A stretch of DNA of 64,000 bases from an uncultured bacterium. GTDB taxonomy: Bacteria > Patescibacteriota > Minisyncoccia > Phycocordibacterales > UBA11359. Made by a program: the position numbers and the translations under genes. The first letter of the stretch is position 1. Every line of letters begins with the position of its first letter. The stretch spans positions 149,502 to 213,501 of the forward strand of contig CAIKZC010000001.1 in NCBI GenBank assembly GCA_903831815.1, given 5' to 3'. Below are positions 861 to 36,391 of the stretch, piece by piece. Under the pieces are notes generated by a model. The model made no database searches. It saw nothing but the letters and a program-made list of their open reading frames with translations, and was not told the DNA's origin.

Positions 861-888
861 TAGTCATTATATACCAAGTATTAGCTTC

Positions 889-1003
889 AAAAATACGGAA
901 AAGTGTGTTGTGAGGGACTCACGGACGCCGACGGGCGGAGTGTGAAGGAAATTTCCAGCAGGAAATTTACCTGTGCCCGAACAACACACTTTTCCGTATT
1001 TTT
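889..1003. repeat. Copy 1 of an IR-flanked GC-rich core element. It is a perfect 23-bp inverted repeat, AAAAATACGGAAAAGTGTGTTGT (889-911 and 981-1003), enclosing a 69-nt GC-rich core.
   Basis: The arms and core are read directly from the sequence. The core GGGACTCACGGACGCCGACGGGCGGAGTGTGAAGG... is homologous to the cores at 9849-9905 (opposite orientation) and 17953-18013. It lies between the divergent recJ and HIT starts. Confidence 0.6.
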
Positions 1004-1020
1004 GATATATAATATCTGTT

Positions 1021-9757: not shown

Positions 9758-9828
9758 GGAGAATAAGTGTGTTAAGTATAACAAATTAAATTCAAAAAAT
9801 CTCCACAAGATATACACGACTTGCGTAC

Positions 9829-9925
9829 AAGAATACGGTTTTCAGGGTCCGGATAGTTTTTCCGCTGAAAAACTTCCTCACACTCGCGCCGTCGCGCTCC
9901 GTGAGCCCCTGAAAACCGTATTCTT
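9829..9925. repeat. Copy 2 of the IR-flanked GC-rich core element. The 20-bp arms are AAGAATACGGTTTTCAGGG(T/G), and the core is in opposite orientation to copy 1.
   Basis: Arms at 9829-9848 and 9906-9925 match 19 of 20. The reverse-complemented core GCTCACGGAGCGCGACGGCGCGAGTGTGAGGAAG aligns with the copy-1 core at about 75% identity by eye. It sits between the divergent pilB and 10032 ORF starts. Confidence 0.6.
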
Positions 9926-10031
9926 TCCCGCAAGTTATGAATAAATTATGTAAATTTGACACCAGTAATGTTTTGTGATATTAAAGTAGAGGAAACTAGT
10001 ATTACTTTACCCATGAAAAGGAGTCCGCACA

Positions 10032-12091: not shown

Positions 12092-12116
12092 GATTTAAAA
12101 AAACAAACCAGCAAAC

Positions 12117-12146
12117 AAAAAACTTCCCTCCGGAAGTTTTTTGTTT
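12117..12146 (+). terminator. Rho-independent terminator after nusA (AACTTCC...GGAAGTT + T-run)
   Basis: Read directly from the sequence. Confidence 0.7.
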
Positions 12147-12290
12147 GTGAAAGGTTATCCACCACTATTACTTTGACGCAGCAAATAAAATAACTATACT
12201 ATTAGCTAGATAAGATTTGCTGTTGGCACGGTGCCAAATAGCAATTGTTGAATTTTATCGGTAACAACCATTGGCGAAGGAGCAGATACC

Positions 12291-17105: not shown

Positions 17106-17125
17106 AAAATAAAAATATAAGCAAC

Positions 17126-17152
17126 AAAAAACTTCCGATTGGAAGTTTTTTG
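17126..17152. terminator. Bidirectional terminator (AAAAAACTTCCGATTGGAAGTTTTTT) between the convergent tig and rsmE
   Basis: A perfect hairpin with A-run and T-run flanks. Confidence 0.7.
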
Positions 17153-17158
17153 TTGCCA

Positions 17159-17908
17159 TTACAAAAGAAAAAGTGTCGCTGCCACAATAGCGGCGGTTTC
17201 CGCGCGCAGTGTCGCATCACCGAGCGAAAGAATATTTACATCGCGTTTTTTAAATTGTTCTATCTCCGTATCGCTCCAACCGCCTTCCGGCCCAATGAAA
17301 ATTGCGATTTTTGTTGTGACCTGCCCCTTTCCACTCGCATCTGCAGAATTTTTTAATTTCTGTGCAATAAATTCTGCAGTTTCCATCAAGCCCTCTTCCA
17401 AATGGAAAGCAACGGCCGGTATTTTTTCTTTTTGAATTTCATTGAGCGCTTCATCAAGTGAAATAATCTGGCGAAGTTCCGGCAACGTTCCTCTACCCGA
17501 TTGCTCAGATGCTTCCTTCACAATTTTCAAACCGCGCTCATGATTAAAATTTGTTTTAACACTTCGTCCAGAAATTATCGGAATAAAATGAGTCACGCCG
17601 ATTTCCGTTCCCTTTTCCAAAATCCATTCAAAATTATCTTTTTTGATCATGGAAACATACAAAAATATTTCGCGCGATTGTTTTACCGAATTTTTTGTCA
17701 TTTCTAAAACTTCGAAAACTCCTTCGTCTTTAGAAAGCAAATCGACTCGCGAACGATATTGAAATCCGCTGTTGTCGAGCAAAATAATTTCATCACCTTT
17801 TTCCAAACGAAAAACATTTTTAAGTTGGTGCAACAAATCAGCATCATCTATTCGCACACTTTTCGCTTCTCCAATTTTCTGCTCAATAAAAAAGTTATGT
17901 AACCTCAT
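17159..17908 (-). CDS. rsmE: 16S rRNA (uracil1498-N3)-methyltransferase RsmE
   Basis: The 249-aa protein has a PUA-like N-terminus and a SPOUT C-terminus (GPEGGW...E). Confidence 0.8.
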   Translation of the reverse strand: MRLHNFFIEQKIGEAKSVRIDDADLLHQLKNVFRLEKGDEIILLDNSGFQYRSRVDLLSKDEGVFEVLEMTKNSVKQSREIFLYVSMIKKDNFEWILEKGTEIGVTHFIPIISGRSVKTNFNHERGLKIVKEASEQSGRGTLPELRQIISLDEALNEIQKEKIPAVAFHLEEGLMETAEFIAQKLKNSADASGKGQVTTKIAIFIGPEGGWSDTEIEQFKKRDVNILSLGDATLRAETAAIVAATLFLL

Positions 17909-17920
17909 GTAAATGATTTT

Positions 17921-18045
17921 ACACTAAACAAAACCGAAAACATACTTTTGAGTGCCTTGCGCAGCGCGACTGGCGCGAGCGGAGCGGACGGCCAGTAGGC
18001 CGGAACGCGTGCAACTCAAAAGTATGTTTTCGGTTTTGTTTAGTG
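17921..18045. repeat. Copy 3 of the IR-flanked GC-rich core element. A perfect 32-bp inverted repeat, ACACTAAACAAAACCGAAAACATACTTTTGAG, encloses a 61-nt GC-rich core.
   Basis: Arms are at 17921-17952 and 18014-18045. The core contains AGCGCGACTGGCGCGAG, matching AGCGCGACGGCGCGAG in copy 2. It lies 13 nt upstream of the rsmE start, in the divergent rsmE/clpP intergenic region. Confidence 0.6.
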
Positions 18046-18123
18046 TCACCATTTTTGAAGTTTTACGTCTACTCTGCTATACTCCCCGTGTAGCAATTAC
18101 AACCAATTTAACCCTTAAAATAT

Positions 18124-18696
18124 ATGAACCTTATCCCAACAGTTATCGAAAAATCTCAAAACGGCGAGCGGGCATACGATATTTACTCACGCTTGCTCAA
18201 AGAGCGTATTATTTTCCTCGGTGGTCCGATCGACGACGATAGCGCCAATATTGTCATCGCTCAATTACTTTTCCTTCAATCTGAAGATCCTAAAAAAGAT
18301 ATTTCCATGTACATCAATTCTCCTGGTGGATCCGTCACAGCCGCTCTCGCCATTCTCGACACCATGAATTTTATTAAATCAGACGTTTCAACCGTTTGTG
18401 TCGGTCTCGCTGCTTCTGCTGGCGCACTTCTCCTCTCAGCTGGCGTCAAAGGCAAGCGTTTTGCTCTCACCAATTCCGAAATTATGATTCACCAACCATC
18501 AGGTGGAGCTGAAGGGCGCGCTGCCGATATTGAAATCACCGCTAAACAAATTATAAAAATTCGAGAAAACCTCAACAAAATTTTGGCTGCCAACACTGGA
18601 CAACCACTTTCAAAAATCCAAAAAGACGTTGATCGCGACTTTTTCATGAGCGCCGAAGAAGCCAAAAAGTACGGCATCATAGACAAAATCCTATAA
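18124..18696 (+). CDS. clpP: ATP-dependent Clp protease proteolytic subunit
   Basis: The 190-aa translation has the Ser-His-Asp triad context ([19 protein letters not shown]). Confidence 0.95.
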
Positions 18697-22251: not shown

Positions 22252-22322
22252 TGCGGGATGGGAGAATCGAACTCCCGCCTACAGTTTGGAAAACTGCAGT
22301 TCTACCATTAAACTAATCCCGC
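22252..22322 (-). tRNA. tRNA-Gly (anticodon UCC)
   Basis: I folded it by hand. The acceptor is GCGGGAU/AUCCCGC, the anticodon stem GCAGU/ACUGU with loop UUUCCAA, and the T-arm GGGAG-UUCGAUU-CUCCC, for 71 nt. CCA is not encoded. Confidence 0.85.
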
Positions 22323-22371
22323 AATATGACTGCAATGAAAAGACTATACCATACAACACAAAACCTCGCAC

Positions 22372-22689
22372 TTATTTCATCGTATCATTATTTATTTTCT
22401 CGATTTTCGACAAAACGCTACTCAAATCATCACCAGGCGCAGTTTTATTTCGTTTTATATAGCCACACACAACACATTTGTTGGAAAGAATAAATTCATC
22501 TTTTTCCATCTCGATTTTTATCGGCTCCATCATACCGCCACATTTTTCGGCCCGATCTCCCGGAAATTTATCGACATGTTTGCTCCACAAACAAGTCGGG
22601 CAGTGGTTGGTGTAGCCACTTCCCTTCACTTCGCGGCTGCAATGACCGCAAACGAAATCTTCTTTATTTTTCTGAAACTTTAGACTCAT
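22372..22689 (-). CDS. RNHCP-domain protein (Cys-rich zinc ribbon)
   Basis: It carries the GYTNHCPTCLWSKH motif characteristic of the RNHCP domain, plus multiple CxxC pairs. Confidence 0.65.
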   Translation of the reverse strand: MSLKFQKNKEDFVCGHCSREVKGSGYTNHCPTCLWSKHVDKFPGDRAEKCGGMMEPIKIEMEKDEFILSNKCVVCGYIKRNKTAPGDDLSSVLSKIEKINNDTMK

Positions 22690-23098
22690 GGGTGTTCAAA
22701 AAAATTTTCATTAATTCTACATCTCTCAGATCTTTTTCTCTTGCCAGTTCCGATTTAAATTTAATAAGTTCCGTTAATGGTAAAAATGGTAAACCCTCAA
22801 TGATATCTGCATTTTTTATCAATTCATCGGTATCCGGTCGATAATTTTTATATTTATAATTTGAAAACACCTCAGTATCGCCCTTAACCAATAGTTTACA
22901 ACGCAAAACTCGCCAGAAAAACCATTTTCTTTTCCAGCCGTCGTTTTTTAGTTGTTGAAACAACTCTTTATTTACCAACAGATCAACATCCCTGGCCGGT
23001 CTAATTCCATGAGCTTCCATGACACCCCCTATTATAATATATTGACCGAGAGGTAAATTTAGTGATTTTACCCTTTCGAAAATAGAAGGATTATTCAT
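22664..23098 (-). CDS. Putative minimal nucleotidyltransferase (NTase-fold) protein
   Basis: IIGGVMEAHGIRPARDVDLLV fits the G[GS]x9-13Dh[DE]h NTase motif. Its stop region overlaps the downstream RNHCP ORF by 26 nt. Confidence 0.45.
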   Translation of the reverse strand: MNNPSIFERVKSLNLPLGQYIIIGGVMEAHGIRPARDVDLLVNKELFQQLKNDGWKRKWFFWRVLRCKLLVKGDTEVFSNYKYKNYRPDTDELIKNADIIEGLPFLPLTELIKFKSELAREKDLRDVELMKIFLNTHESKVSEK

Positions 23099-23107
23099 AA
23101 CAAAATG

Positions 23108-23180
23108 TCGGAGTGCAGGGATTCGAACCCTGAGTCATCTGCTCCCAAAGCAGACATGTTAGCCGTTACACCACACTCCG
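23108..23180 (-). tRNA. tRNA-Pro (anticodon UGG)
   Basis: Hand fold: acceptor CGGAGUG/CACUCCG, anticodon stem UCUGC/GCAGA with loop UUUGGGA, T-arm CAGGG-UUCGAAU-CCCUG, 73 nt. Confidence 0.85.
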
Positions 23181-23325
23181 GTAGAAACAATACTATCACA
23201 CGTACATAAAAATAACTAGCAAAAAAACAGTTAATTTGGCTAATTTCTTCGAGAGAATTCTAAAGGACATTCCTAGTCAGAGAAATGTCCTTTAGAAAAT
23301 CCCAGTGACCTATTGCAAAAACCTA

Positions 23326-23700
23326 CTACAAAATTAGATTCTCAATAAACCTAACCTTAGCCTTCTTTGAAGCGGTGTCTACTCGTATAGCAATGAGCGC
23401 CGCCGACCATTCCATCTCATTAATTCCCTTTTCCTGCAAATAAGTCTGAATAACCCTGGTAAATTTCTTGATCTTGTTCGGACTCATGTTATCTTCCGGT
23501 CTGTAACCAGACCGACTATCATCTCCACCCGTTTCACACGAAACAGTCTTAACTTCCACAAAGCACAGCTTCTTGGCCTTTTTGGCCACAATATCCAATT
23601 CTCCCCACTTCCGGCTATAATTTCTTTCCAAGACCTTGAACCCATGTTTCTTGAGAAACACACAGGCAATATCTTCACCGAACCTCCCTATTTTGTTCAT
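23326..23700 (-). CDS. yraN: YraN-family (UPF0102) endonuclease
   Basis: The 124-aa protein has G.FGEDIA..FL...GF.VLERNY and GELDIVA....FVEVKT motifs. Confidence 0.8.
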   Translation of the reverse strand: MNKIGRFGEDIACVFLKKHGFKVLERNYSRKWGELDIVAKKAKKLCFVEVKTVSCETGGDDSRSGYRPEDNMSPNKIKKFTRVIQTYLQEKGINEMEWSAALIAIRVDTASKKAKVRFIENLIL

Positions 23701-24158
23701 TTTATTGGTTTTTTACTTAGAATTAATAATTTACGCTCGATTCATCACACAAATTTACCCAGACGCACATTGCTTTTATCGCTAAGTTTCATGAATAACA
23801 ACACTCTCTATGTTTCACATGAAACCTTTTAGCTGAAAGTACGACAAAAGGTCTATTTTTAGGCACATTTCACCAAAATGTCTATAGTTTTATAGCCATT
23901 TATTGGACATTTTTGACTGTCTTTTATACACATGTCCCCAGAGTTATCCACATAATTGTTGAAAAATATAGGTATTTCTGTTTACAGAAACCTAAAGGAC
24001 ACATCGATTTCAAAGACTTCCTCAAGCCTAGCAAATAGAGATAAAATATTTATAAAATTTTCTATTTTCTTTTTAGAAAAATTTTAGACCTACTTTAGAC
24101 AACAAAAATCGCCATTTCATTGGCGATTTTTGTTTTGCTCTAATTTTTGTTTTCTTTG

Positions 24159-24232
24159 TGGTGCGGCCAGGGAGAATCGGACTCCCATCTCATCCTTGGC
24201 AAGGACGTGTTCTACCACTAAACCATGGCCGC
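24159..24232 (-). tRNA. tRNA-Gly (anticodon GCC), with an encoded 3' CCA and an unusual T-loop UCCGAUU
   Basis: Hand fold: acceptor GCGGCCA/UGGCCGC, anticodon loop UUGCCAA, T-stem GGGAG/CUCCC, then ACCA at the 3' end. Position 55 is C rather than U. Confidence 0.75.
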
Positions 24233-24352
24233 AAATATCCAACTGAATATTTATCAATCGATTATACAGAAAAATCAGAAAAACACAAAATCAGTTCGCC
24301 AAATATTTATTCATTTTGGTTTTTTGACAATTTGCGCTATGATTGTGTTACT

Positions 24353-24424
24353 GCACCCGTCGTTCAATGGATAGGACAATAGTCTTCGGAACTATTGATG
24401 TGGGTTCGATTCCTGCCGGGTGCA
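24353..24424 (+). tRNA. tRNA-Arg (anticodon UCG)
   Basis: Hand fold: acceptor GCACCCG/CGGGUGC, D-arm GUUC/GGAC, anticodon stem AUAGU/ACUAU with loop CUUCGGA. The T-arm GUGGG-UUCGAUU-CCUGC has two G-U pairs. Confidence 0.75.
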
Positions 24425-35442: not shown

Positions 35443-36391
35443 TCCGAAAATTCCAATATCAGAAGTTCTAAAACAAGAACAAACTGGTTTTGTTACTTCC
35501 GCACCAACAATTCCGAGATCCGGTTCCGGAGTTGTGCCGAAAGATAGTCAAAACAAAATAATTAAAACTTACAAAAGCGACGCGGCTGATGCTGTGAGAT
35601 CACAACAGCAGGTTTCTGTGGCGAAAATCGCTATAGCGCAAGAAAATCAGCGCCGAGCAGAAGGGGAGGAGATCGGCGCCGCGCCAAAAAAACGAACCGG
35701 ACTGATATTCGTCGCCATCATATTACTTCTGCTCGGCGCTGCCGCCATCCCAACTGTTAAATATATCCTTAACCAAAAAACCGTCGCAGTCCCTATTGCC
35801 GTCGAAAAAACGATCATTCCTTTCGATCACCAAGAAAATGCCTTATTGAATTATGCCACCCGCACCGAATTGCTTGCGGCGCTTGGCGTTGTAAAGGCCA
35901 AACCTCAAACAAATTTCTCGATCGAATACATAAAAATTTTGGAAAATATTTTTGACGCAAATCAGAAAAACGTACCAACAAAAATAGCGCCTGATATTTT
36001 TGCAGGTATCCTTGGTCCAAATATGCCATCCGCCCTCGCTCGCTCTTTTGATTCCGATTACATGTTCGGAATTGCAAATTCAAATAATCCAAAACCGTTT
36101 TTGCTTTTCATAACATCTTCATATGAACAAACATTCGCAAATATGTTGAAATGGGAAACTAAAATGACGACCGACCTCGCTCCTATCTTCAATCTCAATC
36201 TCAGCTCTACAACTGCGACCTTCACCGACCAAGTCATCATCAACAAAGATGTTCGAGCTATCACGGCTCCGGATGGCACTATCGTTTTCCTCTACGGATT
36301 TTTGGATAACAACACGCTTGTCATCACAACCGATCCTCAAACATTCCAAGACATCAACTCTCGTTACGTCGCCGCCCGTTTCGTGCAATAG
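35414..36391 (+). CDS. Hypothetical single-pass membrane protein (325 aa)
   Basis: It has one TM helix (LIFVAIILLLLGAAAIP) and overlaps the pnp 3' end by 29 nt, so the true start is uncertain. Confidence 0.45.
   Translation: MDPRNQPQFNPKIPISEVLKQEQTGFVTSAPTIPRSGSGVVPKDSQNKIIKTYKSDAADAVRSQQQVSVAKIAIAQENQRRAEGEEIGAAPKKRTGLIFVAIILLLLGAAAIPTVKYILNQKTVAVPIAVEKTIIPFDHQENALLNYATRTELLAALGVVKAKPQTNFSIEYIKILENIFDANQKNVPTKIAPDIFAGILGPNMPSALARSFDSDYMFGIANSNNPKPFLLFITSSYEQTFANMLKWETKMTTDLAPIFNLNLSSTTATFTDQVIINKDVRAITAPDGTIVFLYGFLDNNTLVITTDPQTFQDINSRYVAARFVQ

Follow-up and report, generated by a model that had tools for sequence, protein, structure and literature searches.

The inverted repeat upstream of pilB in a 64,000-nt stretch of an uncultured patescibacterial genome (GenBank assembly GCA_903831815.1, contig CAIKZC010000001.1, positions 149,502 to 213,501 of the forward strand; hereafter the window, meaning this whole stretch) belongs to a large, widespread family of intergenic structured palindromic repeats that is specific to the Patescibacteria, or candidate phyla radiation (CPR). 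Each copy is about 90–160 nt long and consists of a near-perfect closing stem, different in sequence at every locus, at whose tip two hairpins branch from a three-way junction. Purifying selection maintains the fold on just one strand, the one that carries the core in its sense orientation, and has acted at individual loci over long evolutionary time. The family is a variety of repetitive palindromic element with unusual properties; it is absent from Rfam, and we found no description of it in the literature. Tentatively, we regard it as a structured repeat comparable to repetitive extragenic palindromic (REP) sequences and miniature inverted-repeat transposable elements (MITEs), which may fold as single-stranded RNA and be bound by a trans-acting factor.

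The repeat in the window

A first-pass annotation of the window had recognized here a repeated, hairpin-forming element with inverted-repeat arms next to the pilB upstream region, the second of two copies and the one with the reversed core. All of this was confirmed. Two 19-nt arms (9829–9847, AAGAATACGGTTTTCAGGG, and 9907–9925, CCCTGAAAACCGTATTCTT) are perfectly complementary and enclose a GC-rich core of 59 nt; through an imperfect extension the inverted repeat reaches from 9797 to 9957, with 51-nt arms that are 78% complementary. When inverted repeats with spacers of at most 150 nt were ranked over the whole 64-kb window, the top three were copy 2, copy 1, and a third copy that was found here in addition, with spacers of 59, 59, and 60 nt. 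The core of copy 2 is the reverse complement of that of copy 1: a 28-nt block, CTCACGGA-N4-GACG-N4-GAGTGTGA, stands at 918–945 on the plus strand and at 9878–9905 on the minus strand, with a chance expectation of 0. The positions of the three copies and of the parts of copy 2 are as follows.

9797–9957, minus strand: copy 2, the whole hairpin with its imperfect outer arms (cmsearch score 98 bits for the minus strand, 11.5 bits for the plus strand)
9907–9925, minus strand: 5′ arm of copy 2 in its perfect closing stem of 19 bp; minus-strand sequence AAGAAUACGGUUUUCAGGG
9878–9905, minus strand: copy 2, hairpin A, CUCACGGA-GCGC-GACG-GCGC-GAGUGUGA, its register set by covariation at the W:W pair
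9851–9877, minus strand: copy 2, hairpin B, GGA-A-GUUUUUC-AGCG-GAAAAAC-UA-UCC, built of a base of 3 bp, then a bulge, the upper stem, and a tetraloop
9829–9847, minus strand: 3′ arm of copy 2 in the same closing stem; minus-strand sequence CCCUGAAAACCGUAUUCUU
887–1005, plus strand: copy 1, arms 887–916 and 976–1005, core motif 918–945 (89.5 bits)
17921–18046, plus strand: copy 3, diverged member of a subfamily (covariance-model score 30.4 bits, E about 1e-6)

Copies 1 and 2 both fold into a long closing stem with a three-way junction cap and two hairpins, with fold z-scores of −8.5 to −11.7, and in both the core-sense strand is more stable than its complement by 5–6 kcal/mol. When copy 1 is set against the reverse complement of copy 2, the unpaired blocks are conserved while the stems between them vary by compensatory changes, CGCC/GGCG against GCGC/GCGC in one inner stem and AAATTTCC/GGAAATTT against GTTTTTC/GAAAAAC in the other. 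The arms of the three copies are unrelated to one another, save for an AATACGG common to copies 1 and 2. Those of copy 1 are 30 nt long and 93% complementary, 25 bp of them perfectly, around a core of 59 nt. Copy 3 has perfect arms of 33 bp; its diverged core reads CUUGCGCA-GCGC-GACUG-GCGC-GAGCGGAG and leads into a GC-rich hairpin B. This copy suggests that the family has subfamilies. A fourth candidate at 35648–35741 was rejected, since it lies inside an open reading frame (ORF) and has no core. No arm matched any other place in the window above chance, as it might if the arms served as guides for another locus.

In the sense orientation of copy 2, the outer extension of the arms has an internal loop (GGAA/UGUA) and next to it a 7-bp outer helix (ACUUGCG/CGCAAGU); the 5′ arm of the closing stem contains the proximal segment common to the family, YUUUU-NN-GGGG. 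The base stem of hairpin A pairs as C-G, U.U (a conserved mismatch), C-G, A-U, and C-G; beyond it come a 3x2 purine internal loop (GGA/GA), a covarying 4-bp stem, and the invariant GACG loop. The tetraloop of hairpin B is AGCG in copy 2 and AGCA in most family members. The small inner hairpin that the first-pass annotation had pointed out in the core (AGTTTTTCCGCTGAAAAACT, 9855–9874) is indeed present; it is not incidental, however, but part of hairpin B, one of the two conserved hairpins of the three-way junction.

Distribution of the family

An exact 20-base core pattern occurs at 27 loci among 185,579 species genomes, and 26 of the 27 fold alike; the exception, a Succinivibrio match (L006 in our numbering of loci), is unstructured and was set aside as a chance match. 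The 26 structured loci fall in nine CPR metagenome-assembled genomes (MAGs), namely four Saccharibacteria, one Paceibacterota, one Taylorbacteria, and three unclassified, with copies on as many as 11 contigs of a single MAG. With W allowed at the covarying pair, the pattern matched 115 metagenome stretches from groundwater, lake, and sludge, and none of 2.9 million viral contigs. A covariance model built from 27 copies recovered additional members without a pattern match, as well as copy 3 of the window, and gave 168 hits in all in Patescibacteria MAGs and metagenomes, 144 of which are distinct elements with complete flanks. The arms are locus-specific across these 144 elements; in one MAG (CAYSZI) they are homologous among copies and have diverged with compensation. 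Judged by its PilB homologs, the window itself falls within the Patescibacteria, close to Paceibacteria/Parcubacteria.

A scan of the whole window against Rfam 15 at gathering thresholds matched only four tRNAs, and E-value scans of copy 2, copy 3, and eight family loci returned only generic long-hairpin and miRNA noise far below threshold. A cluster of four tRNA genes, three of them on the minus strand and the fourth on the plus strand, lies at 22252–24424, and no repeat copies adjoin them. In many cases the contig ends no more than about 100 nt from the family member (L007, L014, L026, L027, L049, L054, L060, L077, L105, L143), which suggests that the repeat breaks metagenome assemblies of the genomes that carry it.

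Consensus structure and covariation

RNAalifold applied to the first 27 copies returned the three-way junction with compensatory changes in 22 of 28 pairs. The register of the hairpin A base was set by variant members: C-G, a conserved Y.Y mismatch, C-G, W-W, and C-G, in which the W-W pair is seen as A-U, U-A, and G-C and one member alters all three pairs. Above this base the family shares the 3x2 purine loop GGA/GA, the 4-bp stem, and the GACG loop; a K-turn at this place was rejected, on inspection only, as the loop lacks the combined geometry of a 3-nt bulge and tandem G.A pairs. With the corrected register, and across 87 distinct metagenome members, standard pairs fill 95.0% of the cells of the alignment, compared with 62% in shuffles and 36–58% when partners are slid by 1–3 columns. 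Double-sided changes occur in 29 of 30 pairs, and the covariation score is 0.808 versus 0.194.

The consensus opens with a long variable arm, YUUUU, a small internal loop, GGGG, an optional A, and hairpin A as CUCWCGGA-[4 bp]-GACG-[4 bp]-GAGWGUGA; it continues through hairpin B as [3 bp]-A-[5–7 bp], the AGCA loop, a (U)A bulge, and [3 bp], and closes with G(U/G)N, CCCC, a loop, AAAAR, and the second arm. Median values for the contiguous hairpin are 112 nt in length and about 23 closing pairs, with up to 44 such pairs. In some lineages (L055, L107, L087, L086, L091, L069, L111, L035, L070, L109), a second conserved internal loop lies about 20 bp further out along the arms and is followed by more pairing, so that the full RNA may there reach about 170–200 nt; its forms, 5′ side and 3′ side, are GUYGA/GAGAAAG, GAGCGA/GAGCGA, and ACGGCGAGU/CGAGACAAG.

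Strand specificity

Copy 2 scores 98 bits on its core-sense (minus) strand and 11.5 bits on the plus strand, and the core-sense strand of the core folds better in 101 of 110 elements. The arms alone show the same preference, with the core-sense strand the more stable in 77 of 110 elements (p about 1e-6). Outside the modelled region, the arms hold 1165 Watson-Crick pairs, 54 G.U, 6 A.C, and 41 other mismatches, and the arms contain 180 G.U pairs on the sense strand but 52 on the opposite strand. This bias persists among the 48 elements that run antisense to their abutting gene (70 vs 18). Such strand-biased pairing and stability point to a functional form that is single-stranded, be it RNA or one strand of DNA. 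The suggestion that the element is symmetric in function, as a DNA cruciform or protein site or as a hairpin readable from either strand, thus finds no support, since a cruciform or a protein site on double-stranded DNA predicts neither the wobble asymmetry nor the strand-biased scores.

Retention, loss, and inversion at orthologous loci

Orthologous loci indicate how individual copies evolve. At the copy 1 locus, the ortholog L100 carries the element in the same orientation, with flanks about 75% identical and a core about 88% identical, and one 4-bp stem has been exchanged compensatorily, from CGCC/GGCG to GGAC/GTCC. Upstream of pilB, the element is kept in sense orientation to pilB in the window, L147, and L152, at a pilB nucleotide identity of 75–80%; its arms are homologous in these genomes, while their middle parts have changed with compensation (ACGG/CCGT, GCTA/TAGC, and TGGTT/AACCA). 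Four other relatives (L148, L149, L150, and L151) have the pilB locus without the element. Two of them, L148 and L150, retain a homolog of the 3′ arm that includes the family consensus ACCCTGGAAA, a remnant that points to a deletion of the 5′ arm and core and marks these sites as not ancestral. Between nusA and clpP, two further relatives (L063 and L020) match the window in gene order, but their copies occupy other intergenic regions. Consistent direct repeats flanking the elements were not found; some pairs of filled and empty sites are too diverged to align, and others are deletion remnants. The GAGCGA...GAGCGA repeats of one lineage are not of this kind, being a paired internal loop within a longer stem.

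Whole elements have also been flipped in place. In L038 and L140, the element occupies the same site in opposite orientation, both flanks are conserved, and the breakpoints lie inside the symmetric outer arms; L050 and L108 likewise differ by an inversion in place between conserved flanks, as do the window and L127 (at the copy 1 locus) and, at 95% flank identity, L050 and L054. In total, about 9 diverged orthologous pairs are inverted and about 13–15 are not. The reversal of the core between copies 1 and 2 thus corresponds to a real and recurrent process, and palindromic arms do enclose the core in one orientation or the other, as had been noted. Four independent contigs of the window's own strain all show one orientation, and the cores of the elements contain no promoter-like hexamers.

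A second hairpin family with inverted repeats was seen in passing (GTCCTCGGGTTTCCT...GGCCAGAC, with the arms about 23 bp and the core about 38 nt long; L050 at about 1530–1620, L135, L081, and L014). The L050 hairpin, which directly adjoins an element of the main family, has no counterpart in the orthologous L054 and L108, and its 5′ arm resembles the ancestral flank. The idea drawn from it, that arms arise by inverted duplication of the target flank, gains no support at the pilB locus, where the empty sites are deletion remnants.

Genomic context

The 251 neighbouring proteins fall into 191 clusters and are products of diverse housekeeping genes, among them EF-Tu/EF-G-type GTPases, GyrA/B, DnaK, S1, and MurB; no transposase, REP-associated tyrosine transposase (RAYT), reverse transcriptase, or integrase/recombinase is recurrent among them. 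All three copies of the window lie between divergently transcribed genes: copy 1 between a minus-strand gene starting at 859 and a HIT-family gene at 1021–1383, copy 2 between pilB and rimP-nusA-infB, and copy 3 between a minus-strand gene at 17159–17908 and clpP at 18124–18696. Across the family, divergent intergenic regions hold only about 12–13% of members (10–11 elements, counting one element per locus cluster, with 14–17 between convergent genes). Element orientation shows no significant replication-strand bias, the GC skew being positive in 42 cases and negative in 59.

Spacing to the neighbouring genes is asymmetric (p = 6e-5). The 3′ end of the hairpin lies close to the stop codon of a convergent gene, at a median of 6 nt (n = 81), within 10 nt in 48 of the 81 cases and overlapping the stop codon in 22. 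On the 5′ side the gap is about 58–73 nt whatever the neighbour, with a median of 73 nt from the end of a co-directional upstream gene. Between a sense-oriented element and its upstream gene, this gap is frequently occupied by an ordinary terminator, by a tRNA gene, or by a further element. The asymmetry would fit a promoter located upstream, or else selection that disfavours sense-oriented copies in 3′ untranslated regions. A canonical terminator is not a constant feature of the 5′ side, where only 10–16 of 142 elements have one.

Adjacent elements were also recorded. Five of six adjacent pairs are head-to-head, with their 5′ ends facing; pairs lie in L003 (3700–3910), L103 (8803–9023), L005 (5991–6284), L091 (2192–2452), and L093 (10414–11086), the last bracketing a 91-codon ORF. 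In L065 (2007–2348; L139 is the same locus), two members in the same orientation flank an apparent tRNA gene with anticodon CAU, and in L073 the gap between gene and element likewise appears to hold a tRNA; both assignments were made by eye.

The ordinary terminators of this genome appear to be simple 16-bp hairpins with 4-nt loops, such as those at 12112–12147 and 17121–17156. These two are near-identical, (C/G)AAACAAAAAACTTCC-N4-GGAAGTTTTTTGTT, and themselves form a small repeat family; one follows nusA, the other lies between convergent genes, and both look bidirectional. The terminator scan called none at any of the three window copies.

The pilB/rimP-nusA-infB intergenic region

Two core promoters can be proposed around copy 2.

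9775–9780, minus strand: putative −10 box of pilB, TATACT, within TTTGTTATACT; inferred, and not flagged by the consensus scan
9956–9984, plus strand: putative promoter of the operon of rimP-like gene, nusA, and infB, TTGACA, 17 nt, TATTAA; read from the sequence

The promoter scan demanded a T at position 6 of the −10 hexamer, and TATTAA was thus not flagged. The operon promoter would lie directly outside one end of copy 2. Past the other end, the proposed pilB −10 box lies downstream of copy 2, so that the element would precede the pilB core promoter and be absent from the mRNA of this gene. Copy 2 would therefore sit between the divergent core promoters of pilB and rimP-nusA-infB, in the orientation of pilB. 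A block of the TTTGCTATAAT type downstream of copy 2 is conserved in relatives with and without the element alike, as is the block GATTTTTTnAATTTAnTTTGCTATAAT.

Discussion

The strand-specific selection described above is most readily accommodated, in our tentative view, by a repeat that acts as a single-stranded nucleic acid, most likely an RNA transcribed from the core-sense strand. A trans-acting protein or ribonucleoprotein (RNP) would then dock at the tip, on the unpaired, invariant nucleotides of the junction, and the long stem would form a very stable duplex at the edges of transcription units, where, by analogy with bacterial interspersed mosaic elements (BIMEs) built of REP sequences, enterobacterial repetitive intergenic consensus (ERIC) sequences, and Correia elements, it could serve as a barrier, a processing site, or an insulator. 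The arms may drive flipping in place, through recombination or template switching between them, and the same exchange could help them stay complementary. Several observations weigh against this reading. Copy 2 appears, from its predicted promoters, to lie outside both neighbouring mRNAs, so that its sense strand may not be transcribed. Next to co-directional genes, the element is antisense in 37–39 cases and sense in 19–20 (again one element per locus cluster). No conserved sigma-70-like promoter emerges at a fixed distance upstream of the elements, as −10 and −35 motifs show neither positional enrichment nor an excess over the antisense direction (TATAAA is slightly in excess upstream, at no fixed position), and the arm ends show no U-tract polarity, with 73 T-rich and 53 A-rich. 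The concerted evolution of the arms could be partly mechanical, through quasi-palindrome correction, and not selective, and a single-stranded DNA intermediate would explain the strand asymmetry too.

This last point leads to a rival that we consider fairly unlikely, in which the repeat is a non-autonomous element that moves via single-stranded DNA, as a palindrome-associated transposable element (PATE) derived from IS200/IS605, as a REP/RAYT system, or by attC-like recombination. The core-sense DNA junction would be recognized by an HUH or tyrosine enzyme encoded in trans, and the asymmetry would stem from mobilization and not from RNA function. A strand-specific fold with conserved mismatches and bulges, as in attC sites and IS608 ends, would fit such an element, as would the differing intergenic positions, loss, and gain in related genomes, the patchy spread over CPR classes, orientations that are independent of neighbouring genes and GC skew, the want of a dedicated promoter, and the head-to-head, BIME-like arrangement of five of the six adjacent pairs. 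However, none of the 251 neighbouring proteins is a transposase, RAYT, or integrase, no viral contig matches, and target-site duplications are not consistent; in contrast to terminal inverted repeats and REP sequences, the arms at the ends lack conservation from copy to copy, and old orthologous copies maintain their fold by compensation, which selfish decay does not predict. We think it similarly improbable that the copies are independently transcribed small RNA genes, each giving an RNA of about 100–160 nt for a CPR-specific RNP, with the three-way junction as its protein-binding platform and the hairpin ending its own transcription. Sense-strand selection persists even in elements antisense to the abutting gene, the spacing asymmetry leaves room for a promoter on the 5′ side, and the preceding gap, downstream of a sense gene, often has a canonical terminator, a tRNA gene, or another element. 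But the absence of positioned promoter motifs counts here as well, most copies have no U-tract after the hairpin, and tens of paralogs with unique stems of 20–45 bp would be unusual for a trans-acting RNA. Two cis-acting roles were rejected for the family: a riboswitch or regulatory leader, as elements stand in both orientations (antisense the commoner) beside neighbours from 191 unrelated clusters, and an intrinsic terminator, given the lack of scan calls at the window copies, the absence of T-over-A polarity, the different form of this genome's ordinary terminators, and the location of those copies between divergent genes.

A purely DNA-level role, whether as a cruciform, a double-stranded protein site between promoters, or an inverton that redirects a promoter, is very unlikely. 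It would suit the near-perfect arms, the frequency of in-place inversions in evolution, and the placement of all three window copies between divergent genes, but the family as a whole is scarce in divergent regions, the core has no promoter-like hexamers, and no recombinase gene occurs nearby (251 neighbouring proteins). A spacer of 59 nt is, moreover, too short for the synapsis of a classical invertase, and neither covariation in four internal helices nor wobble asymmetry would be expected, as cruciforms need both strands to fold. The least credible of these explanations is that the repeat carries a new self-cleaving ribozyme or some other catalytic or ligand-binding RNA. The invariant unpaired purines that flank a helix at the junction (GGA...GA) loosely resemble the tandem G.A core of the hammerhead, the family is not in Rfam, and its many copies, indifferent to orientation, recall many bacterial ribozyme loci. 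Yet no Rfam ribozyme model matched at E up to 10, the junction strands are just 1–4 nt long and poorly conserved, and there is no association with phage or ribozyme-linked genes. The hammerhead-like stretch is itself paired, as CUCWC and GWGUG pair mutually with covariation; among the hammerhead and twister-sister ribozymes, by contrast, the hammerhead core CUGANGA...GAA...UH is unpaired at the junction.

A bolder version of the RNA reading, which strikes us as decidedly unlikely, holds that the repeat is a new Patescibacteria-specific functional RNA/RNP module, whose orientation and activity on the neighbouring transcript are toggled by recombination between the arms. Examples would be a new ribozyme, or a hairpin on which a lineage-specific enzyme of RNA binding or processing docks. 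If this were true, the family would represent a short-spacer flip element that needs no dedicated invertase.

Known repeats share many of these features singly. REP/BIME sequences and ERIC elements, also called intergenic repeat units (IRU), are likewise multi-copy intergenic palindromes at gene ends, found in either orientation and often head-to-head, whose transcripts fold into hairpins and which lack an enzyme in cis (REP sequences are associated with RAYT). In REP and ERIC, however, the palindrome sequence is conserved, whereas here the stem is locus-specific and only the three-way-junction tip is conserved. The patescibacterial element is also 3–4 times longer than REP (90–160 nt) and belongs to a different phylum, and it has no RAYT-like gene among its 251 neighbours; REP/RAYT systems are marked by a conserved imperfect palindrome of ~20–40 nt with a 5′ GTAG-like tetranucleotide and by a RAYT (Y1 transposase) gene, often flanked by REPs, whereas the present stem is variable and the 251 neighbouring proteins include no transposase-like cluster. 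Correia elements of Neisseria (NEMIS, Neisseria miniature insertion sequences) and MITEs are inverted-repeat elements of about 100–160 bp beside genes, polymorphic for presence and absence; Correia transcripts form long hairpins, which RNase III cleaves in Neisseria. MITEs, though, have conserved terminal inverted repeats and target-site duplications (e.g., TA), and the present family has variable arms, no consistent duplication, strong core covariation, and strand-specific selection.

The attC sites of integrons offer another parallel, in that structure is conserved over sequence, a single folded strand is functional, and mismatches or extrahelical features are conserved; they measure 57–141 nt, and some have a branched central structure. 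They differ in having R″/R′ boxes (RYYYAAC/GTTRRRY), no conserved central core, and a place in cassette arrays beside an integrase. None of this is seen here: GTTRRRY is absent from the arm ends, and the neighbours are housekeeping genes, not cassettes. The phi29-type packaging RNA (pRNA) is similar in its long helix of the 5′ and 3′ ends, closed by a three-way junction and two hairpins with conserved loops. It is, however, encoded by a single phage gene and has intermolecularly complementary loops, whereas GACG and AGCA are not complementary and the patescibacterial copies are chromosomal and numerous, with no viral match and no match to the Rfam pRNA. Intrinsic (bidirectional) terminators also form stable hairpins right after stop codons, and some arms here start A-rich and end T-rich; there is no systematic U-tract, though, and a terminator is unneeded between divergent genes, where the window copies lie. 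Invertons have inverted repeats around a promoter-bearing segment, an invertase gene nearby, and both orientations within a population, and here the observations are mixed: inverted repeats and evolutionary flips are present, the core lacks promoter-like hexamers, no recombinase is nearby (251 neighbouring proteins), and the four contigs of the window's strain agree in orientation. The combination of locus-specific arms, an invariant tip, one-strand selection, and frequent inversion is unlike that of classical REP, ERIC, Correia, or attC elements.

The Patescibacteria comprise a very large and almost uncultured bacterial diversity, with tiny genomes and few known regulators or non-coding RNAs. 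A many-copy repeat that is conserved across class-level lineages, with near-textbook covariation, is an entry to RNA or single-stranded-DNA biology in this group, and the covariance model can be used for its annotation. The repeat may help to explain the fragmented assemblies of patescibacterial MAGs, in which several copies lie at contig ends. More broadly, the family could show how long palindromes stay perfect and how they are flipped.

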